A DNA stretch of 54,170 bases, filler included, from Dimargaris cristalligena (Eukaryota): assembly GCA_003614675.1 (NCBI GenBank). It is 4 parts of 4 records of this genome, joined end to end, with 100 filler letters (N's around TTAATTAATTAA, not from the genome) between each part and the next. Parts side by side here need not be neighbours in the genome. Positions count along the whole stretch, not along the records: positions 1 to 13,531 come from ML002985.1; 3 more parts are not named here. One strand, given 5' to 3'. Shown in pieces: positions 1 through 26,009 of the stretch (positions are counted from its first letter, which is position 1; the number at the start of each line of letters is the position of its first letter). Under the pieces are notes generated by a model. It worked only from the letters and a program-made list of their open reading frames with translations. It was not told the DNA's origin and made no database searches. Position numbers and translations under genes: made by a program.

Positions 1-194
1 ACCTTCTCTCCCTTTCTCTATTATTTATCTATCTTTTCATTTAGGCTTCCCCTTTTGAGTATAAATACTCCCCCTTACTGCCACCTCTTGGAACAGTAAG
101 TCTATTATCACCTTTCCCTTCTTATCATCTATTTTTTTAAATAAAGTTTAGTTTTCAAGGATTTGATTTCAGTTCTTTATAGCTAGTATTTGGA

Positions 195-403
195 AGACTC
201 TGATAGTAACTGGAAGTATCTAATGGATTAGCACTTGGGTAATTAGTGTAAATTAGGTGGAGTCAGACTGGGGGGAAGGTTATATGATATGTAATAATCC
301 CATGGTACCAGGGGTGACTATGGGAAGGCTAATATGGTGATATAAGGCCTAATATAGTCAGATACTAAGCCAGCTGGATTAGGGCAGATTAGAAGGTCTG
401 ACA
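195..403. repeat. Dispersed degenerate repeat, copy A (homologous to 46207-46416)
   Basis: Aligns by eye with 46207-46416 (e.g. GTACCAGGGGT..ATGGGAAGG.TAATATGG..TATAAGGCCTAATAT). Differences are mostly transitions. It lies in a CpG-free tract. Confidence 0.8.
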
Positions 404-639
404 GTGAGGGGATGGGATGGGGAAAAGGCAGGGGAAGGTGGAAGAGAAATTGGTTGCAGTAGGGTTGATATATTAATATACAAAATGGTAAAGCTAATGG
501 AGATAGAAGTGGAAGGGGTTTTTGATAGTTAAATATTAAATAAATGGAATATTGGCTGGTGAAATGATAGTGTTGAAGTAGGACAGCCACTACAGGCTTT
601 TTATATATTTTTAGGCTTCCCATCATCTAATTGTGGCAG

Positions 640-1400
640 CCACAATGAAACAGCTTACCAAATTCCCCATTTACATGGGCCATCCTTCACATGTTCAATG
701 GCAAGAGGTGAGCAAACTGGCTGATGCTTGGCATTTTGCTGCTGTTCCACCAGTGCAATAACTGTTTGGGGGATTGGTTCATTTTAGCTATAATGCAAAC
801 ACCCCATTTGCTAAATAATTTCAATGGTAAAAACTAAGTTCCAGTTGACTTACATTTTTATTCCACCCAGAGTTGTATACAGCTGTGTGGAGTTTTGCCT
901 ATGTACAGAGGGAAGCTGGTGAACCACCCTATTTTATTTACTAGAAAAGGGACCAGTACCCTGGTAACCAATACACGTGCTAGTTCCATTGCATATACCC
1001 TATTACTGAAAGATTTGTCTAAAGGACATAGGACAGCATTAATATGGGAGTAGTTCAACAAGGCTGTATAACGAAAAATCCATTTAATAAGGCAAATACT
1101 ACTGGTTGAAAATAAACATCCCACCAATTTTCCCATACACATATCAGTTAAATTCTTATACAGCCAAGCTGAACTTCACCCATATAAATAATAAAATGGA
1201 AATCCTCTTCACCAGAGGATGATGTTATGGGAAGAGGGCACATATTAAATATCCGGAGGCTTGTGCATAATGGTTCATCCCTGGCCATCGCCACAATATC
1301 CTTCGAGATGCAATGAATAGCCATTAGGCGGGCCCTTTCCCACCCCTTCTTCCGTTGCTCCTGCTGGCCCGATAACTAGTTTGATAAGTAATGCAATAAC
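640..1400 (-). mobile_element. Possible decayed hAT-family transposase remnant
   Basis: Minus-strand translation near 650-765 gives LLHWWNSSKMPSISQFAHLL..(frameshifts)..PCKWEFGKL, resembling the hAT dimerisation motif WW..P.L..A..LL..CER.FS. Many stops; boundaries uncertain. Confidence 0.3.
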
Positions 1401-3026
1401 AGTGACTCTCATTGGATTAGGCCTGGCTCTCCGTTCTACAATGAGTCAAAGACCTTGATTAAAGATAAACTGTGTAGATTAATGCCAAACAATCGACAGA
1501 CTACCTTTGTTTGGACATAAAGAGGATTCTGCAGCAAGGGTGGGCGACTCTTGGCAACCTAAGGGTGGATTTAGGCAGTTATACCCATCTGTGTTGCAGG
1601 CTACATCCCCCCCCCCAACGTTTAGTTCATCGTCCATGTAGACACTGCCCCGCCGATTGGAAGTACTCTTCGCCCCTTAGAACTGTTTATACGGCGGGAT
1701 GCCTCCACTTTATTTGAAGACTGCTATTGTCCAGAAAACTATTTTTTTTTATCTTGTTGGTTTGTTTCGGGTGAAGAGGGTATGTGGCGCACCAGTTTAG
1801 GGTCATCAATACGGTGGACATGTGGATGGCTTACCTAATATACTAACGGTCTATTTTTCATTCCATACCAGCTGCTAAGCCAGATATTCGAAAATCCGAT
1901 AATGGAATTGTACTATTCACGTCCCCCGCTTCATATGGCTGTCCGACCTTGTGTGGTCCATAGGTTATGTTTATGAATTTCATCTCCTATCTCAATAGCA
2001 GGTTGCTTCTGTTTAGTCCAGCTAACAGTGTCCATTAGAGGTTGAGAGGTGGGATGCGGGTATATAGAGGCAAATGGCTAAAGAATCCCACCAGGATTTG
2101 TTTACAGCACTTGTCTTATATTGCCCACCTAGAAGTCTTCGGAAAGACTACCCCCAGTCACATTGCTACATTTGAAAAATGCATCTTCCCGCTAAGCCAT
2201 TTTATAGGCTGATAGATGTGTTACATAGTATTATTACCCTAGTACCACATTAGGCTGATAGGCAGCTGCTAATAAACCTTGAGGATGTGTGGTACAACTA
2301 ATGCTGCGAAACCACATATTGCTTTAATTGCGAGCTCTGCCCAGCAATTCGATAACCCTTTTTCTACCTTTTCGGCTGCGATATACTTGCTAGTGGCATT
2401 TCAGGAAATACTGTACCTTAGGGATTAGAACTATAGACTGTAATATTGAATAATATGATTTTTTTTCATACATCAACTTCGCCACTTACGTAAAACGAGG
2501 GATAGAGGCGAGGCTATATTTACAAGTCCATATTTATGTAGGGCGACCATTTGTTAATCAGGAAATTTCGGCCAATAGGCTCTGGGATGTCAATGCTCTA
2601 CTTGGTGGGGAAGGATAGTACCGCGAAAAATGTCCCAGGCCTAATATGGGTTAGATATACAAAAAATACTTATCAACATTACAGCATAAAAGAGAGGAAA
2701 GCTACTGGACGCCGACAGGGAATTCAAAGTGGTCAGTTGCATTGGATACTATAGTAGGTTGGCTTTATTTTAAGTGGAATAGATCAATAGAAGTGGTGCA
2801 AACCACTAAACTAACTCAGCTAGGCAGAAACAGGCGATTGACTGCATGGCCTAGGGAGGATAAAGGGTTAACCATTCACATGGCCCCACATTCCCGATAT
2901 TCCTATCAGAAACCCCACCCCCCCCCGCCTGACTTAGACCTTTTATTAAGCCCTATAATGTCCCACTCTCAGTCCCCAACAATAGATAGGGTTAGTTTGG
3001 CTCTTAGTATTCCTAGGGGTGGGAAT

Positions 3027-3287
3027 TGTTGGAAATATAGATTCAATGGTAAATGCAAGTGCCTTCAGATGCAACTAAAAAGGATTTAAAGAAGAGAGAA
3101 AGAACCGCGAGGGTCAAGGCTAGATGCCCACGGTTGGTTTTATTGAATTGGATAATAGTAGTAATAATGATTAGGACGAAGTTCAAGGTATAGAATGATA
3201 TAGTAATGGCTAGAATATAGTCCCGAGTATAGGACGGGCCAATCACAGAGATGGAATCAGTGGGACGGGGGAAATGAATTTCCAACA
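3027..3287 (-). mobile_element. Solo LTR (261 bp) with 5-bp target-site duplication
   Basis: Starts TGTTGGAAAT and ends ATTTCCAACA (perfect 10-bp terminal inverted repeat, TG...CA). Flanked by GGAAT at 3022-3026 and 3288-3292. AATAAA on the minus strand. Second copy at 36724-36982. Confidence 0.9.
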
Positions 3288-4428
3288 GGAATTACCCTAA
3301 ATTAGCTGAATGTCGGAGATCTTTGGCTTACTAAACACTGGCCGTATGTTAAATAAAAGTGCCAATGGCCAAAGCAAGGTCGGATAACACTTGATTAATG
3401 CAGGAGGCGCACATTAGTAAAAATGGTGTTTTGAACTGGCAGGGTATATATTTTATTAGAGAGGTCTAATTAGGACCTGGACTCAGAGTGGTTCGTGGGT
3501 TTAGAAAGATTTTGTGAACATTGGCAATATACCTCATCCAAAGTGAGACTGCTCGAATGGAAGTTACATCAATCACACATAGAGAAGCTTCTGAGTACAC
3601 ACCGGTCACGCATTCCCACACCCACGAGGTTTCCACTGGTGTTGATCGGAGAAACAATAATAGTGCAGACCAGCTGTCCTCTTCTAGATTCAATCCTGAA
3701 GGTCAGTTGCCAACATAAAGTAGATAATCCAGCCAGACCCAGCACGTTTATATAGCCCCACAAATGGGAAATCTGCCAGCGAGAATAGGGCGGAGTTCTT
3801 CATCCATGTTTTAATATGGTGAGTAGCTTCGATTAAGACTTACTTCCTAAAATAGCTACTGTCCATTGGCGAAATATTAGAGTTGCCCTCCATTGTACAA
3901 GTCAGAGCTGTCATTCACGAAGGCCCAAACACAACGGAATGAGAAGGTCCTGCGGTTAAAGAAATAGCTGATCATCATACCACCGGCACTAATATGCTAT
4001 ATGATTCTGATGTGGATACATGCAGGGGATCGGGTGGCCGGGTGGGGCGAGAAGACCATAGCATTATCGTCGGTATATATAAAGGGTTATGTCTGCACAC
4101 CATGGTTTTACGTACTTACATTACAAATTTATTCTATTTCTCCAACGTCTGCACTCATACTCTCTTAATTTAAGAACCGGCCAATCAATCTTGTAAGAAC
4201 CCCCCCCCCTATATGTCTCTACGTATCACTTTTATTGACTACGTACATGTAACTTGAGCCATGCCCGTTGTTTTCCAAGGAAATGAAAAGGTATATTTAT
4301 CAATATAGTCCACTTACCAGTTGTTTATTTTACTACCCAATCCTTCTTTGACCGTCGCTCAGCACCTAGATCAGTTTGGTCACGAGCCAATTCACAACAT
4401 TATACCTTCGTAAGCAATAACTACAGAG

Positions 4429-4677
4429 ATGCCGATGAAGGCTACCCTAAAGACAATGGCCCTGCTGGTGGCAACCACTCTTGCCATTAGCGGCCATATT
4501 GCCTCGGTTCATGGGTTCCCCCTCTCCACCGCCACAACGGCAACTCAACCCCCGCCAAACGTAGAATCGTCCCTCATGGCGTTTTCCTTGGACTGCACCT
4601 GGTCATACCGTGGGCTTTGTATCGTTCAGCCAGCTGCCTCGATTGGCGTGAACGAGCCAGTGGGCTATCCCATGTAG
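4429..4677 (+). CDS. Small putative secreted peptide (82 aa, 2 Cys)
   Basis: Signal-peptide-like N-terminus (MKATLKTMALLVATTLAISGHIASVHG|FP), Thr/Pro spacer, CTWSYRGLC loop. TATATAAA at 4076-4083. Start may be 4435. Confidence 0.55.
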   Translation: MPMKATLKTMALLVATTLAISGHIASVHGFPLSTATTATQPPPNVESSLMAFSLDCTWSYRGLCIVQPAASIGVNEPVGYPM

Positions 4678-5372
4678 ACATTGTCGTGGAGGCCCTTCTC
4701 CCTTCTGTTTAACGAGGATGGCGATGTGTAAGTCATCGTTTAAATAATAGGGGATGTCTGCTCGTTTGGCTCACGGTTTAATAACCGACTTTCTTAATTC
4801 GATGCATGGGTGCCCAAGATGTTACTCAATTAATGCATAATTTTAAAGCGGCTAACCAAAGTGGTCCTATATATTAATAAACTAAAGCAGAGAAACCTAT
4901 TAATCAAGAGAGGTATTATTTGAATAGTGATATGGATTGCCCGTGGATTATGGCCCCCCTCTTTTTATGTTTCTTTTTTCTTTGGAGGCTTCCAAAAATG
5001 GACAGGGAAGCTGTGGTCCAAGTTATTTAATAGGCACTATTGTATAATTTCTCACTCACACTAGAGGTTTACCAAGGTTGGCCCGCTGCGGGCACTCAAA
5101 AAGCACATAATGACACGCCTGTCTCCGTATATATACACTCTTTGAATTTATGGAGAGCTCCAATACGATACGCCTAGTTGTAGTGAAACAAACTATGGGA
5201 TGCGTTTTTCACGAGAGTAATGTCATTTTATAGCAATTTATGATGTAGATTTATTATAAGTCGTTCAGAAATATTGTCGATGAAGGGGTATTTTCAACCC
5301 CCGTGAAAATAATTTTAAGTGGATTGTAATTGGGTGTCTAAGAAGGGCTGGAAACTAAGGGAATATTTGGAT

Positions 5373-5756
5373 TTAGAGGGGCAAAGCCTGGGTGTCTTTC
5401 CCGTTGATACCCTCATACGGAAGGTTGAGTATAGGCGGGTAGGCCGGGAGGGTCGGAATGGTGGGTGGAGTGGAAATACAGGGGATAACGCCCGTGTATC
5501 GGCACGGTAGGAATGGGCAATTGGCCATTCTACCCCCTTGCGAATACCGACAGTTATTTTGACAGTTCACGGGGGAATGACAAATGACCAGCGGGGATAA
5601 AACGGAAGTCCGCCTTCTGAGGGCGACTGGATCCAAGACGGGCTGGATGGTTTGCAAGTCGGGATAGCAGCAGTCGTATATTGGAAGCGCCATGGCGGAA
5701 GCTCCGGCCAGGGCAACGACAAGGAACACTAGGGAAATAATGAAATACATGGCCAT
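5373..5756 (-). CDS. Small secreted cysteine-rich prepropeptide (127 aa)
   Basis: Strong signal peptide MAMYFIISLVFLVVALAGASAMA|LP, RRR basic site, then six Cys including CQNNC, and a Pro-rich tail. TATAAAA at 5964-5970 (minus). Confidence 0.7.
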   Translation of the reverse strand: MAMYFIISLVFLVVALAGASAMALPIYDCCYPDLQTIQPVLDPVALRRRTSVLSPLVICHSPVNCQNNCRYSQGGRMANCPFLPCRYTGVIPCISTPPTIPTLPAYPPILNLPYEGINGKDTQALPL

Positions 5757-7968
5757 AGAATCGACTAAAAAGAAGGCAGTAAAAGGGGACACCAAAGGGA
5801 TGCGAGGTAGGGGAGGGAGATGAAAGCCGGTAAAATGGGAGTGGCAAATAGTTCAAACCTGATGATAAGATAGGTAATACAATTAGCAGTAGGTTTAAAG
5901 ATGGAAATATCGGAAACGAAGTAATGGACGTTGATGCTGTTCCAGTAGGAGGAAAATACTGGCTTTTATAAGCCCGTCCAGTAGAGACAAATAAACATCA
6001 CCCGGCTGAATATAGGTTACCATAGGAGGTAGCCGCGCCACTACCCTGAAGACCCAGCCGAATTTTATTATGCAAATGTACACGGAATTGTAGCTTAGTA
6101 ATAATGTAGGATGCATTTGCCAATGATAGATTTTGTGTAGGTGAAAAAAGACTCACCCCCGCTCAGATTAACACCACATCACAGCTAGGGCTATGGAATC
6201 GATTTTCGGCGGATATCGACTACTCCGCCAATTTACTGAAGGTCTTCCTTAGTTTAGACCAGCCAATGGCCTAAGATCGTCGGCAAATGTGAGGGATGGC
6301 GTGTGCAAATCGCGGGATAGGCGGTGGTGGTGGTGGTGTTGGCGGAAGGAGTGAAAATAAGGGAGCAGCGGTTCACTCAATTCACAAGGTCACCTCCACC
6401 CCATTCCGGTAATTCCATTTCCATAGGGCGGTATTCTGGCCTTTCATGCTATGGGCATTTGTTAGGTCCTATCAATAAGCTCCCCTTTACAAATTGTGTA
6501 TAACGAGCATGGGACCAACAATTAGCAAAAATATAATAGAGAGGGATGGCGGTCTATTGAAGCGACCATTTATGGAGTCCGAGTGCGTACTTGGATATAT
6601 TAAGGCAATTGCGGCAGGCCATCCCAATATAAATTAGCCCTGATGAGTATCGGTTGGAAAAAGAATGATGGTGTGATTTAGACTCTCCAGTCAGCCAGAT
6701 TAAATCGAGGGACCGACTGATTAGCAGACCGGCGATTTTCGATCGTCCCAAGGGGTGGGGCAATTATGCATAATTCTGGAAGTACGGATACACTAGTGAG
6801 GGATTTTATAAGTGTAGGCTAGTGGCTCGGTTTGACATAGTATCTAAATATTCAGCTGTTGAATCGATTATTTGCATGACCCCCGAATAGTATGGCTACT
6901 ATACACCGTATTGGGCATGTTGAAAATCTAAAACGCTATGTGGCAGCTCAGTGGGGGGAAGGACTCGACTGCTGGGCCAATACTGGGCTAACCATTTTAC
7001 CTGACTTAACTGACCAATATGGATATTGGTATAGGTTAGTTTGCATCAACCGAACCCAGCAGTCCGCTATAGTACAAGATTATACCACTAGGTCAGGCAG
7101 ACGCATGTCTTGGCCGGGAAACTAGACTGATAGCTGAGATCTTGGCGATCCGGGGCGTGGATCCGGTGACTAAATCTAACGAGGGATAGAACAAACTCGA
7201 CACCAGGGTTTAAAGACGACAAAATTATTTTGTGAAGTAACTGGGGGGAGGGTTATATAAAAATAAGATAAAATAAGATGCCCTAACGCAAAGTGCCGAG
7301 AAAGAGGGGGAGGATGCGCGGACATGGTATATATAAAACAATATCGGTGGGGTATAAAGTGGTCAATTCTGAGGGGGAGGGGGGTTACTCTAACCAGATA
7401 CTCATCGAAATCATCACAAACTTGACGGCGTATCCGGAACCTAGGAAACTGGCGTCAACCCTATCTGTGGGGAAGGAAATCTGCTCACAGAGCCGCTGGG
7501 TGACGGATTATTGCGGCGCCAAGGGGCTACTATCGGATTATTCTACATTCCTCAAAGGTTTGGGTATGTGACATATTTACCCTCCCCCCCATCTGGCTAG
7601 AGGATACACTGCTATCAGTCTACAATGACAGGTTCCGTGGTGTTGGTAATCACGCTATATCCCCCAGCGCCAGAGCATTACCGAATACCCGAAAACTGTG
7701 TATTTTTGGGTAGTCCACCACCGTCACACCACTTTCAATATACCACTCTTTTCCAGTCCTGGGCCCTTTACACCGAAATCGCCATAGTATACGCCATAAT
7801 GAAATAAAGTGGCCCAATATTCAGTTTATTGATATGCAAATTCTCTGATGCATCTGACAGCCGGAAAAGCAATTAAACGGGCCCATATTAGGACGTGCGG
7901 AAGAAGCAAAAGATAAAGAGGAGAGAGGAAAGGCTTGGGATGGTCATTGGCTTATCGCATCGGGTAGG

Positions 7969-8220
7969 CTAAGTTGACTTTTGTTGACCTTCGTTAGATT
8001 TCTTTCCAGTCGCCATCGTTTTCATCGTATTACACGCAGCTCCTATACACGCACCCACCGCCTTAAACGGTGCCGAGATGGTATTCTTTACATTCTGCTT
8101 TATCCTATCGACAACAACACCGGGGTTCGCCGGAATGCCACTACGAGACTTACCCTCGCCAGCAGCCTCAATTCCGACAACGGCGACGAGGAGGGCGGTG
8201 ATTAGGAAGGTAAGTTTCAT
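7969..8220 (-). CDS. Small secreted cationic peptide (83 aa)
   Basis: ATG at 8220. Classic signal MKLTFLITALLVAVVGIEA; mature part has 10 K/R against 3 D/E and a CIGAAC pair. Pyrimidine-rich leader and TATAAAT at 8430-8436 (minus). Confidence 0.75.
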   Translation of the reverse strand: MKLTFLITALLVAVVGIEAAGEGKSRSGIPANPGVVVDRIKQNVKNTISAPFKAVGACIGAACNTMKTMATGKKSNEGQQKST

Positions 8221-8984
8221 GTTGACCAGCGGTAGATTTGAGCGAGGGTAATGGGTGATTGAAAAAATAAAATGAATAGTCGGTAAATTGGACAGGGGAA
8301 ATGGTAAAAAGGAAAGGCGGTAATGATGTGAGTTTAAAATGCCGGATGTAAGGAGGGGGGGATGCCAATTGAATGGTATGGATGAATAGTGAAATGATAT
8401 TGAGATAGTAGGGTGGACCATAGCGGACTATTTATATTGTTTTTTTGAAGTGGTCCGCCAGCCTCACCATCCCTCATTTTTCTAATATGAATCGGTGGAC
8501 CGCCACGGGGACTTCTTTGGTGAGCAAGAGGGGTTTTAGAGTCACTCGCTGGTTTTTTGTGTATTGCTGGGACGCGGACCCTTTAGAAACCATGGTGGCG
8601 GGTAGATTGGGGAGAGGGAGGGTCAGTGGCCGCTCCCCCACTAGCGAAAACTCATCCACGGCACCCCAAATTCGGGCAGTATCACCACCACCGCCTTATC
8701 CTGCTGTTCACGGAGGGAGAAGAGGGGTCTTGGCATGTAATTCATCTAGACCAACTCAACAATGTAGATGGCCAATTGATTAACTAACTGTTCAAGGAGG
8801 ACTAGATTATAGACTAACGGTGCGGCAGAAGAGCGCGAAATGGGATTCAAGAAGCCCCCCGGCTATTGTTCTCGTTTAGCCATCAACCACCAAGACAAAG
8901 AGTAGGCAGGCTTGTAAAAATCTGTGAATCGCACTACCTCCGCCTTTACCCTCCCTCCTCCCCTTCCCGTCTTCCCTCCCGCCC

Positions 8985-9850
8985 GCCCGATTATCGGACC
9001 TGCGATGTGAGAGGGATTCGTTTTCAATGATACCCGATGATTTGCCCATCTTGGGGAGATGGGTCATGTATTTAAGGATACCGCCATGGCAGCCACCGGT
9101 GCACTCTATACTCGATAGAGCAAGTTTATTGGGAACAAGGGGCAGTACTACTACTCTCCAAGGTAGAGGAGAGAGCGTGTCACTACTACTGTTTTCCACC
9201 CTGGCCGCAAACTCGGCTGTCTAGAGACATGGCAATAACAGCACAGTGGAGGCAGCTGCGACTAGGAGTAGTAGTGACACTCTCTCTCCGCTACTCATGA
9301 AGAGTCGGTACTATTAATCGGCGCAGGGAGGAATTATTCCCCCCTCTCCGATTAAAGCCACCACCCCCCTTCTACTATATCAGGTGTATCTTCTGTACTC
9401 TTGTCTATCAGAATAGTGGACGAGAGAGGGCCCATGTACTCCCCGCGAGGGGTGGTGATCGCAGCTGTAAGAGAGGGAATATCCTGGGTCTGGGAACACC
9501 AACCAACCTTCATACTCGACAATCCTAGGAGCCTCCTCTAGATTAGAAGTAGTGAGTGTAGAAGAGACCCTAATAAACGGGGATGACCACAGTCTATGGC
9601 ATTCTAATTATCCTACCACCCGCTAACCCCCTCCCTCTTCTACCCAGGGTTGCCGAGGTGGTCCCCCACACAGTCAGTTTACACCTCGCAATCCCACCAG
9701 CCCATCCCAGGACGTCGTATGGCCAAGAACATCATAGATATCCAGAGGAGGGGGAGTGATATTTCCTACGAAACAACACGGCCTGTCCACATGGATCTCC
9801 CCATTCGACTAATCAGAATTATTGGACTACCTTCCATATGGAATCATTAC
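8985..9850 (+). ncRNA. Candidate structured non-coding RNA, family unidentified
   Basis: Dense series of stems: 9045-9063, 9104-9120, 9144-9312 (22/23-bp core), 9314-9355, 9398-9426, CCCC-GCGA-GGGG at 9441-9452, and 9647-9694. Several mismatches become G-U pairs only on the + strand. No convincing ORF. Confidence 0.4.
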
Positions 9851-10318
9851 TACTGTTCAATGGCAGATGACTGGCCATGTGGTATGTTGGGATTTATCAG
9901 AAATGCGATACTAGTTTAATGAATATAAATATATAAAGGTATAAAACTGTGTCAATTTTAGTTTACATGGAACAGGGGTTGGGATAAATAAATCTGATGC
10001 TCAAAGAGAATCTTAATGCCCGAGGCAAACTGCAAATTGGTGAGTTAAGAGTCAGGCGGGTAAGGTCAAGCCCGCGCGTAGGCTCTCTCTCCGCATGAAC
10101 GGGGTGTACAGTCTTACAAAGAAGAGCAAATGTATGAGTATGTGTATGAGGGGAGGGTAGCAAACCATCAACCATTGTCATTAAAAACTAAGATTGGTCT
10201 AACAGCCATGTGGTAAAACAGTAATCGATGGGGCGGGTATGTGTATGTGTGTATACTATACATCGCTTGCAGAAGTTGACCCAGGTAAGTAATACCACAC
10301 TACCTCCTTCTATATGAA

Positions 10319-11035
10319 TTACGAGGAAGTGTGAGCGGGAACCTTGTGGCTAGTAACGGAGTCCTTCAGTGGCAACGAGTCAAGGTGGTGGGCAACCTTC
10401 TCCTCCGCCGCAGCAGGCGTACTATAATTAGGGGAGTACGAGCGACGACCCTCGGGGGAGTTGCTTGAACCCTGGGAGTTGTGACTGGTACCCACGATGG
10501 CGGCAGTTCCCAGCAGAGCGGCCAGGGTAATAAACTGGGCGTAGACACGAGCTTGGACCAGCTTATTCATGGTGGACATGTGCTTCTGGCGCATCAGGTA
10601 ACCGAGGGAAATGCCCATACCGGAGGCCCAGGTGGTCCCGATAATACTCCACTGGTGGTCCTGGACAAAAGTCCGGGCGCGGGTCAACAGCGGCGCATCG
10701 GCCGTGGCGGCGGCGACCTGGTCGGCGGAGGGCGCGACAATGGGCTTCCCGGTGGCGTCAAACCGGGCGGTCAAAGGGGCTGGGGTTTTGGCGTGCTGGC
10801 TCTTTTCGTAGACCCGACCGGCCCGTTCGCTTTCGATCATAATAACGGAGGCGATGCCGGAAGTGAGCAAAAAGGCCTTGAAGGGCAAGGTCAGGCTGCG
10901 GAAAGGCATCCAGTAGCGATTGAGCAGGTAGGTGGTGGGGACGAACACGGCGGTACTGAGAATACCTCCACGGATGCCACCGTCGATATGGGCCTGGTAG
11001 GCCTCGTCTTCCTGCTCTTTGGTGAGGATCTTCAT
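10319..11035 (-). CDS. RCF2: Respiratory supercomplex factor 2 (HIG1-domain mitochondrial membrane protein)
   Basis: N-terminus MKILTKEQEDEAYQAHIDGGIRGG matches Rcf2. HIG1 motif KLVQARVYAQFITLAALL; four hydrophobic segments; intronless 238-aa ORF. Confidence 0.9.
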   Translation of the reverse strand: MKILTKEQEDEAYQAHIDGGIRGGILSTAVFVPTTYLLNRYWMPFRSLTLPFKAFLLTSGIASVIMIESERAGRVYEKSQHAKTPAPLTARFDATGKPIVAPSADQVAAATADAPLLTRARTFVQDHQWSIIGTTWASGMGISLGYLMRQKHMSTMNKLVQARVYAQFITLAALLGTAAIVGTSHNSQGSSNSPEGRRSYSPNYSTPAAAEEKVAHHLDSLPLKDSVTSHKVPAHTSS

Positions 11036-12273
11036 GGTGGCGAGAGGGAAAAAGGTGAGGGACTAAAAAGATTCTATGCGATTGGGTGGGGGGATAGACA
11101 GAGTGCTCTATAAATGATACAGTGGGGAATAAATAATTGTTGAACAGGCGGTGTGGGCGGGGAAATATCACTCAATAGTAAAAATGGAATAAAATAATTG
11201 TGGAGTAAGGCAAAAAGGGAGGGCCGGATTATGTGGGGGTTTTATAGGGGACGGCGCTTTCTCTTTAGGCAACCGCATATAATCATGAATGGGACGGCTT
11301 GCGTGGACGATGGTGGTGGCTGGTTACACTATGACGACGAAACGAATTGGGGGCGCAGCACGCTCCCCCGTAGAAGTAGGATTCCCTATACTATAGGTCA
11401 GTGGAAACTGGAACAAACCGTCCGTCCCGCCCCGCCCCGCTATTGGCCCACGCCCAATAGCACCCGTGTTCCCTCATTTACTGGGCGGGTGAGTCCGGGA
11501 TTGCCGTTGGGGCACAAGGTCCAGAGAAGGAGGTTGCTGTTGTTGGAGTGGGCCATCGTCGTCTTTCGGAGAATCCCCCCCCCAAACATATATTGGCGGC
11601 CATCTTACTTGATTTGGAAGTCGGGTATTTTAAGGTTAAGGTAGGGGCCGCCGCTGGACTGTTTTTACTGGCAACCCAACTCCGAGCTGCAATGAATGAG
11701 TCTGGAGTAAGCTGTCAAATCTGCTGCGCACCCTCGGTCCGGCGGGGAACACTTTACTTCACCACCGTGCCGCGCCAATTAGATATCGTATCTTATATTG
11801 CCAATACCATCGCGGTACGGGCAAATTATAGATAAGAAACTAACTATCTCTTGTGCCCAGAAGAGTGATTTATATTAATAGAGCAATGACGTATAAAGCG
11901 AACGCCATCAAAATATAATAGATACATGTTGCGGTTGAACGGTTTGCGGGGCATACATGGTACGGTGGTGGGAAGTGGAGCGAACTACTACCACGCCCCC
12001 TCCTTCGAAAGAGGTGTAACCTAGAGCTCTGTAAATAGCACCCCCATGATCGAGAAAGGGAAAATCTCTGAACTCAACGACCAAGCAAGTGAACACGCGA
12101 GAGAGGCCGGCCGGGCGCAGAATCCCACCCGATTCCCCTTCCCTCTTTCGTCTCTAAGGGTTGGCTCAAGTCAGACTCATTCTTTTTTGAATTTATACTC
12201 AAATCAATTTACCTGAATTCCCCTCCGAGTCCCCTGATCCCCTCTCGCCCCGTACGCAACTGCATTCCCTACC

Positions 12274-13531
12274 ATGGCGGATTCCCTTGCACCAACCACC
12301 TCCACTAGCCCGGCCCCTCAGCAGGCCAAGCGGGTCAAGATCGCCAAACCCAAACTAGGGAAGCCCGAGGGTCCCGGCCGGTGCCATTACTTTGTGGCCC
12401 GCAAAAACAAGTACTGTTCGCTAATCCCCAAGACCGACCAGTACTACTGCGGGGAACACGCCGTGTTCGTCACCTTCCCTGCAACAACCGCCCCCGGCGA
12501 CAATGCTGCTGCCAGTAATGCAACCCCTGCTGACAGGTCCTCCGGCCAAGCGACGGCAAAGGAGGCCGATACCACCACCGCCGGCGCCCCCCTCACGGTA
12601 CTACCGCAGCGGGTTCCCTGTCCCCTCGACCCCTCCCACACCGTCAACCTCAAGGGCCTCGAACGCCACATGAAGTTCCGGTGCAACGCCCGGCCGCCCG
12701 AAACCACCCCGGCCTATTTCCGGGAAGACTACAACGTCGCCGGGGTCCGCCACCCCGAGCCCACCGAGGGACCCGTGGTGGACCCCCGGTTGATGCATGA
12801 GCTGGGCGACTTGAGCTCCGTGTCGTTTGCTTACCGGAAGAAATCCAAACTCTACCACGACTTGATTCAGAACCAGCTAGGTCAGCGCGTTACTTTGCCG
12901 GCCAAAGCGGCGGCCGAAGCAGAAGCCGTAACAGCAATAGAAACAGAAGTAGTAGCAGTAGCAGGTGCCCTCCCCGCTACGCTGGACCAGGTACCACCAA
13001 CACCGGCGGCGAATGCCACCGGACTCCCCCCATTCGCCAAACTGGACTGGTCAGAGCTATCTCAATTGGCCCAACGGGCCTCCGCCATCTACACCCGACA
13101 GGCCGATCAGTTCCGCGAGCGCCACCCCCTCCCTTCCTGCCCGAGCGGAACCTCTGATTCCTCTTCGACACCCCCCCTATTCCCCACCGAAATTTTGGAC
13201 CACCCCGCACTCAACCAGCGGCGCCAGCAAAAAACCGCCGTCAAACACGTCGTTCAGCAGGCCTCCCTTCTCGGCCAGCTCGAAAAATTGGGTCTCCTTC
13301 GCCCAACCTACCAATTCGTCGAATTCGGGGCGGGCAAGGGGGAACTTTCCACGTTCGTCCAGACGGCCTTTAACCTGCCGACCGAATCAGCATCACCCGT
13401 CCCGGAGGTGGCGTACACCCTGGTGGACCGCCGGAATTTCCGGAATAAATTCGACCGGGAAGTGGGCCATACGGTAAGGCGGATCCAGATTGATATCAAG
13501 GATTTGGATTTGGCCCGGGTGGACGGCATGC
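12274..13531 (+). CDS. TRM13: tRNA:m(4)X modification enzyme Trm13 (3'-truncated at contig end)
   Basis: CCCH finger (CHYFVARKNKYC..YCGEH), CHHC finger (RVPCPLDPSHTV..HMKFRCN) and methyltransferase motifs FVEFGAGKGELS, LVDR..R.K.D and RIQIDIKDLDL. Confidence 0.93.
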
Positions 13532-20919: not shown

Positions 20920-22180
20920 ATGATGCACTACTCTATAATACTTCACCTCCCGAAATCGAGGAGGTGGTATTTCTAGTATGCGGGCGAAAATGCCACCTTG
21001 TAGTTCCTAGCATGCCTAATTCATCAGAGGGGGACCGGTTGTGGTTTACTTCACCCAATAGTACACTGATATTATACCATCGATTCGGCCGTACCCTTTC
21101 GCACTAGTTCCCGCCTTTCAAACCCCACCTTTACGTATTTGGCCAAGATAATAATCATCTATTGCAATATTGCTCCAGCCATTCTTGTTATATTAAAGTA
21201 CTGGGTGGGTGAATGGGCCTAGTTCGATGATGGATCTCCGCCGCAATCCATCCATTTTTAATAGTTGCGATAAGCCATGTAATAAATACGCCTCTCCTTT
21301 TGGACTATTTTTAGTTTTGAAATCCCTGTCTATCCCCTTGTCATAGATGAAAGGTGGGCCAGTAAATCCGATACGTCGTAGGTCGTACTACACGCCCTTT
21401 ACGTTCCCCAATGTCTAGGTTAGAAGCCACCCATGTCACCTATCAAATGTCTCCAACTGTCTGATATGTTCCTAGAGACTTGTGTTAAAGTAGGGCGGCA
21501 TACCTAGCCCATTACATAGTTCTTTATCTTAATTATAGATAGGTATTGGGATTTGAATCTCTGACTATGTAGGCAAATGAGCTTTTGGGATATAAGGTAC
21601 TTCATTATTAGGGTAATACTCTGTCTTTTGTGGGCAAAATAGTGCCAACCATCACAAAATCAATAGTACCTGCTGCATAGGCAGCGGTCACTGGATTCTA
21701 GGCGATATACGTGTGAGCGAATAGGTAGGCAGCTTGATTGACTCGATGATGGCCTGTGTTGGCTCAGAGTTTCCTCGGCAGAACGTTGCACGCCTATACC
21801 TGCATTTTCAACCAGCTTTACTGCTCACAGGGTCCGCTGGGACATGGCGAATTTCGCACAACATCCCCGCTGGCAAACCGCATTAGGCCATAATCTACAT
21901 CTGTTTCAGTGTTTGAGACCAAATCTATGCCCTGGACTTCTTTACCATTCTCGATATTTCCTTTTTATCCCTCTACTTGTTCATCAACTCCGCTTAATTG
22001 GCCCAAAGGCTCGTCTTGCTCATTATTGACCCATCGCTAACTGCGTCACGCACCCCTGATCCCCTTATATTTTCCGAAAAACCGCCCCAACGGAGTAACC
22101 TGCAATTAAGAGTACCCCCCATCCACAACTTTCCTTTCAACCATCACATCCAGCCGCAATCGGCACCCCAGTTTCTCATC

Positions 22181-25100
22181 ATGTCGGCGGAACTACCAGA
22201 CGACGTCAAGGACAAACTTGCCAAATTGGAAAACTACGAGAAGCGATTCGCAGGTAAGCGTGAATTCGATTTTATGGGCCAATTGGTTTATCCAACCACC
22301 TTGCCCCCCCCATGTATAAAATTACTCGTTGGGTGGCAGGTATTAGAAAATGCCCTTCTACACGATCGTTTTACTTCTAGGATATGGTCCCTGTTGGGAT
22401 ATTATTTCATGTTGACGTAAATTAACGTACTATTTTGACTATGCTCTATCCTCCTGGTTCACCTACTAGATCTCATCAAGTCATTCAAGAAACTGACTGC
22501 TCAAAAGAAAGCGGCCGATGCCATTTTGAAGGAGGTCACACCTCTGCGCACTATTGCCGATGCCGAGGCTCTGGAGGCTCACCTAAAGAATCTCAACTTA
22601 AAAACGGAGGTCAGTGAAGCACGTTCATACGACGGCCTTTACTTACAATATTCCGCTGGGGGGTATTGCCACTCAAGTGTTCGATTGTTCAATTCGCATT
22701 GCTCATCATGTAGTTATCCATACCGCTGTATATTCTAAAACACTTCCCTGGTTATAGATGTCCTCAGGTGAAATCAAACGGTTAACCACTGAACGAGACG
22801 GTAAGTGTAACCAAGTCGACTGACCTTACGATATGAGTGCCTTTCAAACATCGTGGGACATTGCTGATTCTGACCATCTTGTCGGTGTCGATTTCATTTA
22901 TATCCTTGCCAATATCTAACCACTAAATGCATACCCTCTCCCTAACCCCCGACACGCACATAATTGTTTAGAGGCCAAAAAGCAACTCAAGGCATTTACA
23001 GAAGAGAAAAAGAAGCAGTCCGAATCGCAGTCGTCACTTAAAAATGAGCTAGAATCCGCTCGAAAGGTAAACCTTAGATTATTGCGTGTAATTTTTGGTG
23101 CTATAGTCCTTTATGTGCCAATTTAATAGTGTCATGTGGTGGTATTATGGGAGAAGCCACTGGATGAATCCCGCTATTTATTAACCTCCCTACCCTCCCC
23201 GTCAACCCCATGTCAATTTAGGCTGTTACTGAGCTTCAAGCGTCGAAGTCGGAGTTACAGCAGTCCCTTGCGGAAGAGAAATCGGCCTACGAAGAAGTAG
23301 CCACGGAACGCCAAGTCGTTCAAGAAAAATGTGCTGAGCTGCAGGATAAATGCGAGACCCTTAGTCGCGAACGGGCTGACGCACACGAATCCTACCAACT
23401 CCGTATCAGTGAACTGCAATCCGAGATCCGGGGCTTAAAGAATCAAGAGGAGATCGCCAGAGCTACTAAGAGTCAATTGGGTGCCTTGCATAGTGAAGTC
23501 AAGGATGCTGTAGGAGGCGAGTCACCCAAATCCGGCGAAGTCGTCGAAGGCGAATCGTCCTCCGCCGCAGTGAATGTGGATGGTTTGTGTCGATCGGTAC
23601 ACCGGGCCCTCAAAAAGATTACGGAGACCCAGGACCAACTTGGTAAGTCTACCCTTCATTCAGATATTTACTTATGCGTCTATACTACCCCGAATGACAG
23701 TATTTGATCAGTGAATGTTACACGAACCCGTCTAACCTACGTTGTTTCGACTGTTTTTATTACGCAATTGTTGGTTTTTTAATAATGGTGTATGCTATAC
23801 TTGCATTGGTTGTCTGGTAGCTACTCTGAGCAACGAGAATGACCACTTGAGCCAGTCATTGCAGGAGGCCCATAAAGAACGCGACGCGCTTAAACAGGAA
23901 GTAGCCACTGCCCGTGAGATGCCATCAGAGCTGACGGCGGAACCCGTCGCTTTGGCCCAGTCTGATGCAGTGCTCGACGATATTACTAGGCTCAGCCAGC
24001 AGTTGGCCCAAATCAAGATGCAGCTATTCGATAAGGCCGGTGTAATTCAAGAGGGCGAGTCTCTTGTGATCGCAGGTGACTCGAAGCCGCCTACCCTGGA
24101 TGCCACGGAATCAGCGACGCGCTCTGACTCTCCAACTCCCGAGCCAGTGGTTGATCCCCAGGAATTGATTGAGCTGCGCCAACAATACGGGGATGCCCAG
24201 CAAACTATACGGAAACTCGAGGATACGGCGGAAGCCCAGCGGGATGAAATCGTGCAGTTGAAGGAATCGTTGGTTGCACGAGCTGACCAGGTGTCCCAAC
24301 TCAAAGCCGACGTCCAAAGCCACCAGGATCGCCAGCGGGAACTTATATCTAGTGCCGAGGCTCTCCAGGGAGCCATAGACACCAAAGTGAAGCAACTTAA
24401 TGCCCGCGAAGGCGAGATCAAGGACCTGCAGTCTCAAATCGAGACACAGTCCACGCGGCAAGCCGAGCTGGAAAGCCGGATAAAGGAAGAGCAAGCGACT
24501 CAGAAAACAGCTGAGGGCCAATTGCGGGAGCTCCAGACTCAACACGACCAAATCGAGGAAGTCATGGTTAAGCAGAAACAACAGCTCAACGCAACACGGG
24601 AGCACCTGGAAACCTCGGAGGAGAAGGTGATGACCCTAACTGACCAGCTCGAGCGCTCCCAACGGCAGGCCAGGCAGCAGACTACCGAGTTACAGCAGAC
24701 CAACGACGAGCTCAAGAAGGCCCACGGTCGACTCCACCAAATGGAGAAGGAGGTGGAGAATATCCACGCCAACAACCGGAAGCAGCTCGACGAAATGGCC
24801 AAGAAGAACGAAAGTCTGTCCAAATGCCGGGAATCCATGGAGTCCCAACAGTCGGAGTTCAACCAGACCCGGGAACAGCTGGAAAACATTCAGGCCGACC
24901 TGACCACCTCCCGGCAACTGTTCGAGGAAAAGAGCGCTAAGCTGGACCAGACCAAGACCCGCCTCCACGAGACGGAAATGGAACTCAAACAGGCCTTGGC
25001 TAACCTGGAGCAACTGCGGTCCGAGTCAACCCGACTTCAACAGGTACTGCGCGATGAGCTGGCTCAGCACCGACAAAATGCGATCCAGGCGGTCAATACC

Positions 25101-26009
25101 GTACGCCAGGAGCTGGCCGACCGAACCGAGGAACTCCATGCTTTCCGGGCCGAAACCCAGCCGAAGCTGGGACTACTCCATCAGGTCGAATCGGAGCGGG
25201 ACACCCTGCAGAACCAGCTGGGGGTATTACGGGCCACCATCCAAACATTAGAGGACGACGCGGTGCAGCAGAAGTTAGAGATTGAACAGCTGCAGGGCAA
25301 ACAGAAACAGTGGGTCAATGCCAAACGGGCGCAGGAGCAGGCCATGAACGACCTTTCCCTGCGCGAGTCCCACTGGCGTAAGGTCAACCGCGACTTGAAG
25401 GAGGAAGTCAAGCGGCTTCAGCGAAATGTCGCCGGCGGGTCCCTGTCTTCGTCGACAACCGCTGGCGGCGCCGGGCTGGGCCGGGGCGCCGATCGGTTCG
25501 GCGGAAGCAGCGCCAGTTTAGCCGACCGGGCCCTCTCCCCCCAGCTAACGCTGTCCCCTCGCCTCCGCCCCGGCCACTCCCACATGGGTCCGAGCCCGGG
25601 ACTGGAGTTCGATAGTCGTCGGTCTTCCACCAATTCCCCGGGCGGGGCGTTATCCCCCTCCCCCGAGCACCGGCCCAACGGCATGGACGATTCTCTCCGA
25701 CCCCCTCCCACTCCCCCCCGCCAAAACCACCGGGACGGCCGGGACGTTACACCCGTGGGGGAACCGATGCTCCACGCCCATTCCACCCCCACCGCGTCAC
25801 TTCACGGAGCGGCGGGTGCTACCAGCACCGCGTCCAGCCCCACCGGACGGGGCCACCGGGACTCCGTCGACGACGTCAACCTAGAGTACATCCGCCACGT
25901 GGTGCTTAAATTTTTGGAGCAGCGCGAACATCGGGCTCAGCTTATCCCGGTTTTAGCCTTGTTATTAAAGTGCAGTCCGGAAGAAGTCCATCGATTAAAT
26001 GGCAGCTAA
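22181..26009 (+). CDS. IMH1: GRIP-domain golgin, Imh1-like; exons approx. 22181-22253, 22470-22609, 22759-22800, 22972-23066, 23222-23641, 23821-26009
   Basis: Spliced N-terminus ELPDDVKDKLAKLENYEKRF..EVTPLRTIADAEALEAHLKNLNLK resembles fungal Imh1. Long coiled coil; C-terminal GRIP VNLEYIRHVVLKFLE..LIPVLALLLKCSPEE. GT-AG junctions. Confidence 0.88.

Follow-up and report, generated by a model that had tools for sequence, protein, structure and literature searches.

A single-copy hairpin in non-coding DNA of Dimargaris cristalligena, tentatively read as a microRNA-like precursor

In the mycoparasite Dimargaris cristalligena a hairpin of 169 nt (9144-9312, strand-neutral) is real, single-copy and lodged in non-coding DNA. 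Its best reading, which we hold tentatively and at less than even confidence, is that of a microRNA-like precursor borne by a spliced non-coding transcript of the plus strand, with a layout akin to that of plant primary microRNAs. The basis in hand consists of the hairpin itself, its rarity, its single copy, the absence of a coding signal, a set of intron-like signals and the presence of Argonaute genes. Positions given here are those of the window – the whole stretch of 54,170 nt that was analysed – where 1-13531 is contig C778 of an assembly (G000) of 30.65 Mb in 2220 contigs. An earlier note had singled out the segment 8985-9850 as a candidate for a densely structured RNA gene; its observation is partly confirmed and its interpretation partly supported, in the manner described below.

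The segment sits between two genes of the minus strand. The first (10319-11035, -), a convergent neighbour of the putative unit, encodes an RCF2/HIG1-domain protein (Pfam HIG_1_N, E 8.5e-13), the nearest relatives of which, in Dimargaris, Dispira and Tieghemiomyces, are 58-64% identical, which places the organism in the Dimargaritales (Zoopagomycota). The second (7969-8220, -), a divergent neighbour, is an open reading frame of 83 aa known from its translation, of a small secreted type (signal peptide judged by eye) and without Pfam match. It is one of three small frames with signal-peptide-like starts, the others being 4426-4680 (+) and 5373-5756 (-); one of the three is cysteine-rich, and a Pfam match was absent for the two frames of this type that were tested. 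Together they are possibly a cluster of mycoparasite secreted effector-type genes. The assembly also contains two unlike eukaryotic rDNA units, L225 (contig C1293) and L226 (contig C850), with an 18S of 1801 nt and 44% GC in one case, and of 1981 nt and 54% GC in the other, where the LSU has a group I intron. On the basis of these two rDNAs, a second organism, perhaps the host, is present in the assembly.

The core of the hairpin pairs 9163-9190 with 9267-9294, with 26 Watson-Crick pairs out of 28 and two mismatches, A.G and C.U; this extends the 22 pairs out of 23 that had been reported for 9168-9190 and 9267-9289, and that we recover. Besides this 28-bp core there is a bulged base and a bulged upper rod, and 76 nt separate the two core arms. 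Folding of 9140-9316 is far better than that of shuffled sequence on both strands (z -6.69 on plus, -6.96 on minus, with 0 of 100 shuffles as good on each), at about equal energies (-81.2 kcal/mol on plus vs -81.7 on minus). The top, described as branched in the earlier note, is branched on the minus strand only: on the plus strand it is an unbranched bulged rod. The same note had argued for selection at the RNA level from imperfect positions that would repeatedly be G-U on the plus strand. This argument fails for the main hairpin, as the pair table of its core holds no G-U pair at all, and among confident pairs of the whole segment G-U pairs number 16 of 200 on plus vs 11 of 108 on minus.

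A BLAST search of 8900-9900 against the assembly, in which common words are skipped, returned the self match only, and a genome-wide scan with a 20-nt arm pattern, allowing up to two mismatches, found the two arms and no other site. How rare such a structure is was estimated on a background of 793 kb out of the 30.65 Mb, in 106 pieces and with the window included. Once low-complexity arms had been removed, 11 inverted repeats scored at least 14; five of these are members of repeated families, for which 23-44 more hits were obtained, and the other six are single-copy. With a score of 22 the hairpin is the top single-copy inverted repeat of the 793 kb sampled, a rank that is biased, the window having been picked on account of the hairpin. 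The runner-up (score 18) lies in a transcribed spacer, between the 18S and 5.8S of an rDNA unit. Many dispersed copies with TSDs, which would make the hairpin a MITE, were looked for, and the element was rejected as such: there are no further copies in the 793 kb, and a TSD of 2-10 nt is absent at all eight boundary pairs tried, as the TSD part of the earlier claim of no TIR or TSD would have it. That the segment is non-coding, single-copy and not a MITE holds good. An inner element of the CACTA type (9181-9276, with a CACTA start and a TAGTG end) was likewise rejected: it has no 3-nt TSD, and its arms continue outward.

A repeat of this sort does exist on the same contig: the stretch 1038-1189 belongs to an abundant MITE-like family of about 150 bp, with imperfect TIRs of about 30 bp and a spacer of 84 nt, and 44 further BLAST hits (71-96% identical) in 793 kb. 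A second foldback family, at L128 709-1012, has arms of 70 bp with 164 nt between them and 23 further hits in 793 kb. The hairpin resembles 1038-1189 in size, the repeat having arms of ~30 bp around a spacer of some 80 nt; it differs from the MITE-like repeats of this genome in that these have 23-44 further hits per 793 kb and AT-rich arms, while it has no further hit and no TSD.

Beyond the hairpin, structure is much less impressive. The whole 866 nt of 8985-9850 fold better than shuffles (z -5.56 on plus, -2.99 on minus; on neither strand did any of 20 shuffles do as well), and the stems named in the earlier note are present at the positions given there, including 9314-9355, 9441-9452 and 9647-9694. 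Yet the 'dense run of stems' supposed to cover 0.9 kb does not stand: among 114 sliding windows of 150 nt over 6500-12299 a single one, 9150-9299, falls below z -3, and both 8985-9139 (z -1.0/-0.6 on plus/minus) and 9648-9850 (about 0.0 on plus, 0.6 on minus) fold at chance. The stretch 9467-9850 is unstructured (z 0.07 on plus, 1.23 on minus), and the supposed structural RNA of 0.9 kb stops being structured near 9466. In between, 9313-9460 gives z -3.5/-3.2, with one of 100 shuffles as good on each strand. When the hairpin is swapped for a stub, its flanks within 8940-9466 – limits that were picked after the fact – keep z -2.2 on plus (0 of 40 shuffles) and -2.6 on minus (1 of 40). Against a background of 370-nt windows (40 out of 411 eligible), none has z <= -2 on both strands, one has any z <= -2, and seven differ by at least 1.4 in z between strands. 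The single structured background window, L065 9251-9620, reaches z -3.05 on one strand only.

Strand asymmetry, then, which had been proposed for the segment as a whole, is not a property of the main hairpin, with its equal folding; it exists mildly outside it, for 8985-9850 with the hairpin stubbed has z -2.13 on plus (0 of 45 shuffles) and +0.43 on minus (29 of 45). Confident pairs (p>0.8) in 8940-9466 number 143 on plus and 84 on minus. This domain, a putative and modestly structured exon 1 (8940-9466, +), would be organized by long-range plus-strand helices closing the hairpins, predicted at 8942-8957/9447-9462, 9053-9065/9429-9444 and 9076-9085/9383-9391. A second hairpin, at 9314-9355 (no strand assigned; 15-17 bp with internal loops; -19.6 kcal/mol on plus, -23.6 on minus), is confident in the folds of both strands. 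An 11-bp hairpin at 9398-9426 (+), made of eight Watson-Crick and three G-U pairs, has -12.6 kcal/mol on plus and -4.2 on minus, and is the sole clearly plus-strand-specific stem. Smaller stems are found at 9045-9063 (seven Watson-Crick pairs and one G-U), at 9104-9120 (six Watson-Crick pairs) and at 9558-9566/9635-9643 (nine positions out of nine paired); the first and last of these, with 9441-9452, are missing from the confident helices of the whole plus-strand fold. The long-range pairing of 9252-9261 with 9459-9468 that had been suggested is complementary indeed (nine Watson-Crick pairs and one G-U), but it competes with the hairpin, because 9252-9261 is already engaged there with a pair probability of at least 0.94. 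All in all, one stem (9144-9312) dominates, and structure beyond it is modest, with a mild plus-strand lean, and absent past 9466.

Several signs point to a transcription unit on the plus strand. Just ahead of the segment comes a C-rich pyrimidine tract (8932-8986, +; 87% C+T over 55 nt, as had been noticed), probably a 5' leader or start region. In 600 kb there are 28 such tracts, eight inside coding-like segments and 20 outside; a coding segment follows on the same strand within 600 nt for 9 of these 20 vs 152 of 787 random non-coding positions. Downstream, a spliceosomal intron of 181 nt is predicted at 9467-9647 (+), with a GTAAGA donor at 9467, the branch motif GCTAAC at 9622-9627, a pyrimidine tract at 9628-9644 and a CAG acceptor at 9645-9647. 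All splice signals are there, and the length falls within the 105-383 nt of introns inferred in this genome. It is the best intron of the region, scoring 22.8, vs 15.9 for the best candidate of the minus strand; an alternative donor (GTGAGT, 9552) would make a 96-nt intron scoring 15.3.

The training set of the intron model comprised 34 further introns from the same genome: out of 64 candidates obtained from coding continuity, 32 had common donors, two were dropped (a duplicate and a purine-rich one), and four read by hand were added from the gene at ~22180-26009. This gene (22182-26009, +) has a 696-aa coiled-coil frame as its last exon, preceded by five introns of ~150-220 nt recognized by eye, four of which are those added by hand while the fifth was found by the script. 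In leave-one-out scoring, 33 of the 34 training introns stay below 22.8, and 11 of 254 non-coding background windows, genuine introns among them, reach that value. When a strict pattern of donor, branch and acceptor was drawn up with the site already in view, 20 of 5000 shuffles of the region matched it, as did two places in 508 kb of strand sequence (vs 0-1 in shuffles); its acceptor module taken by itself is no more frequent than in shuffles (7 vs 2-13). In the predicted fold the donor is paired with the pyrimidine tract (9467-9478/9632-9643). We see in 9467-9647 a predicted ordinary spliceosomal intron, for which this evidence is suggestive and falls short of proof.

What follows the intron, a putative exon 2 (9648-9950, +), is unstructured (z 0.03 for 9648-9850) and its frames score as non-coding; at its end, an AT-rich, TATATA-like patch read from the sequence at 9915-9950 may be a 3'-end signal of the putative unit or of RCF2. 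All 12 frames tested score between -0.09 and -0.28 per codon, vs -0.05 for the 5th percentile of coding sequence, in a test that is weak for short frames, since two small secreted-type genes score about 0. A coding gene with short exons (9027-9162, 9385-9466 and 9648-9737, chosen by eye) was considered and rejected, as the frames in which these pieces lie have scores typical of non-coding sequence. A sigma-70 promoter scan, irrelevant to a eukaryote, gave chance level. The leader-like tract, the mild folding lean and the best intron are all on the same strand, and the structured domain ends about at donor 9467. Taken singly, each of the plus-strand signs – leader, domain, intron, tail and AT-rich end – is weak; when the microRNA-like reading is added to the scaffold, telomerase and snoRNA readings considered below, the balance tips slightly towards transcription of the region.

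The unit that we tentatively favour would be a plus-strand gene of RNA polymerase II, single-copy and non-coding, the product of which would act as a primary microRNA-like (hairpin RNA) transcript. Transcription would begin around 8935-8985, at the pyrimidine tract; exon 1, up to 9466, would fold around the 169-nt hairpin; the ordinary intron 9467-9647 would be spliced out, and the 3' end would fall within the AT-rich patch around 9915-9950. A duplex of 21-24 nt would then be cut from the 28-bp core, by an enzyme of the RNase III type or by Argonaute itself, and one strand of this duplex would be loaded on one of the Argonautes of the genome. For a lone, near-perfect duplex of 28 bp in such a unit, the simplest function to propose would be that of a microRNA-like precursor, a preference that we keep short of even odds. 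It was already among the proposals of the earlier note, and it stays the best single one.

Comparison with known loci is instructive. Minimal hairpin rules for fungal mi/milRNA loci have been set out (Johnson et al., 2022; PMC9757828): they call for a foldback duplex without secondary stem and with at most 20 unpaired bases, and here 26 of the 28 bp are formed and the two mismatches are single. The hairpin is intergenic, overlapping no CDS, no TE and no Rfam structural RNA. Like the fungal loci of that study and Neurospora milR, it has a duplex of more than 21 bp and no side stem, in a genome that has Argonautes. Unlike them, it has 76 nt between its arms, in a genome where no Dicer was detected, while well-supported fungal loci in the main text of that study (the supplements may list longer ones) have less than 20 nt, a typical feature that is no formal rule. 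Because this inter-duplex length differs, and the locus is a candidate from sequence alone, we would not file it as a milRNA. The lineage apparently lies outside that survey, the main text of which uses 'mucor' 0 times. The hairpin-then-intron layout, for its part, is known from plant MIR genes (PMC3701235), where MIR163 and MIR161, like our model, are independent units with a long foldback and an intron in the same transcript. Rfam searches with 7500-11500, 8930-9480 and 9440-9960 gave three weak matches each, all far below cut-off, and the cmscan-type check suggested earlier thus brings no family. The best shape match of the hairpin is a miRNA precursor family, MIR7526 (19.8 bits vs a cut-off of 110, E 0.23), a likeness of shape only, implying no homology.

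The machinery that such a small RNA would use is partly visible. A Piwi profile has five matches in the genome, three of them in open frames of 866-881 aa, and there are four to five Argonaute genes (L078-L081 on contigs C599, C749 and C178, and one on C1507), two of them in tandem on C749. A loose search of this incomplete assembly gave no Dicer_dimer candidate, and an equally loose search for RNase III returned one match only, to an mL44/MRPL3-like gene, and no nuclear RNase III. Nuclear RNase III is expected in such a genome. Because it was not returned either, these loose searches do not establish the absence of Dicer. In the part of a published survey that bears on this point (PMC12663654), no Dicer is reported for its one Dimargaris proteome, less than 90% complete, nor for 7 of 20 Zoopagomycota proteomes. 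Dicer-independent milRNA routes that use Argonaute, QIP and MRPL3 have been reported in Neurospora (as cited in PMC4425646), and the mL44/MRPL3-like gene is present here.

Several points speak against a microRNA-like precursor as well: the hairpin folds alike on both strands and its core is free of G-U pairs; no Dicer was found, and the arm gap is 76 nt; the intron score is reached by 11 of 254 windows, of the 20 pyrimidine tracts in non-coding sequence 9 have no coding segment after them, the donor is predicted to be paired with the pyrimidine tract, and a 20-nt arm segment has no near-perfect target in its own genome at up to two mismatches. Because of this last result, for the segment tested, and of the small secreted-protein gene setting, a bolder version may be considered, in which a plant-style spliced microRNA-like gene of a Zoopagomycota mycoparasite with several Argonautes and no recognizable Dicer, matured independently of Dicer, would aim its small RNA at the Mucorales host; we regard it as improbable.

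Nearly as likely as a microRNA-like precursor is an inert local inverted duplication, produced by a template switch or left by a long-dead single-copy foldback, the other stems and intron-like signals being there by chance. Equal folding of both strands and a core without G-U are what it would give; one strongly structured window in 114, an intron score that 11 of 254 background windows match or exceed and a genome where foldback repeats are common all fit with it. So does the lack of any homologue in our searches: a metagenome scan with the pattern of both arms gave 0 stretches, a viral scan with the arm pattern gave six, with similarity confined to the pattern (chance matches), and among the 80 metagenome RCF2 loci kept of 129 confirmed, all of them distant (29-39% identical), BLAST at E<=1 gave nothing that matches the region. 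However, there is neither TSD nor second copy, the flanks are more structured than all 40 background windows in the both-strand test, the plus-strand lean outside the hairpin is left to chance, as is the sharing of a strand by leader-like tract and intron, and an amplification chimera would not be expected to show the mismatches and bulges seen in the arms.

A long non-coding RNA of ~530 nt (8940-9466), structured, that would remain undiced and serve as an RNP scaffold, its 3' end coming perhaps from the first splicing step at 9466, is rather unlikely. It would account for the predicted helix that joins the 5' end to the bases before the donor, for the nested long-range helices and for structure ending near the donor, and spliceosomal cleavage is a known route to 3' ends in fungi (PMC4299874). 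Yet the structure of the flanks has no plus-strand preference, pyrimidine-purine pairings arise easily, and neither an Sm-like site before the donor nor an Rfam family was found.

The hairpin could conversely work on the minus strand, as a cis signal in read-through RNA of RCF2, cut by a nuclear RNase III of the Pac1/Rnt1 type so that transcription ends before the next gene. It folds as well on that strand, lies ~1 kb past the RCF2 stop and precedes a gene of the same strand, and the substrates of Pac1 are stem-loops of 20 nt or more, in which bulges and varied loops are tolerated (PMC8421224). We nevertheless find this quite improbable, for it leaves the plus-strand leader, intron and folding lean unexplained, and the loose search returned no such enzyme.

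A telomerase RNA, with its template at 9623-9632 as the earlier note had envisaged or elsewhere in the segment, is already largely refuted, and we give it very little credence. Its size would suit, and a structured exon followed by 5' splice site, branch and 3' splice site is what fungal telomerase RNA precursors display (S. pombe TER1, Aspergillus TER; PMC4299874, PMC5175330, the latter used for core TER features); unlike them, the region has neither a template of about 1.5 repeats fitting the array nor an Sm-like site before either donor (a regex scan found none near 9466 or 9551), and the alleged template is intronic. The 10-mer at 9623-9632 (+) overlaps the predicted branch point and occurs five times in 654 kb, where the 7-mer CTAACCC has 118 sites. 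The assembly has no match to (TTAGGGGG)3, and 34 of 36 triple-CTAACC matches fall in one array at the start of contig C2089, which contains 40 CTAACCCT, 0 CTAACCCC and no C run longer than three; this sole long telomere-like array cannot be copied from 9623-9632. The longest plus-strand matches of the region to it are two 7-mers, both within the predicted intron, and no Rfam telomerase match exists at E<=10. The array may belong to another organism – its ownership is uncertain, given two unlike rDNAs in the assembly – and this leaves the telomerase reading some room. Judged from sequence, 9623-9632 is better read as an intron branch point than as a template.

The array itself (L005 51-515) mixes the units CTAACCCT, CTAACCCTAA, CTAACC and CTAACCCTCA, and by inspection all four could come from one 13-nt template that slips, CTCACTAACCCTC. 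This 13-mer is present at 8 of the 30 sites listed (L035, L039, L041, L045, L048, L052, L053 and L055), and these eight make a short list for a search of the real telomerase RNA. Another motif, TCACTAACCCT, has 49 sites in the assembly, where its reversed control has 27; most of the 49 have no splice acceptor following them, and they may be protein-binding sites of the telobox type. Judged by title and the start of the abstract, none of the matches listed in the literature reports a telomere repeat or a telomerase RNA from Zoopagomycota or Dimargaris. A false telomerase lead is removed in this way: CTAACCC-type 'templates' can here be branch points or common motifs.

Least likely of all is a snoRNA host gene with an intronic guide RNA, suggested by a C-box-like GGGATGA at 9580 and a weak Rfam SNORD95 match (E 8.6) but opposed by the absence of a CTGA D box on the plus strand of 8900-9950 and by antisense matches to either rDNA (one LSU partial) of 11-13 nt at most, vs 11-15 nt in control windows. 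Non-coding spliced snoRNA host genes are known in fungi. A C/D guide on the minus strand, with an 11-nt match to one 5.8S ending in CTGA at 9900, was rejected, having no C box and being absent with the second rDNA.

To come back to the microRNA-like precursor, what the hairpin means for Dimargaris depends on its expression. If not transcribed, it would be an ordinary orphan inverted repeat. Transcription and processing, if they occur, would make it a candidate microRNA-like gene in a phylum where, by title and start of abstract, none of the matches listed in the literature searched describes a microRNA-like hairpin locus; and, if this reading is true, the locus would offer a direct test of Argonaute loading where Dicer is undetected.
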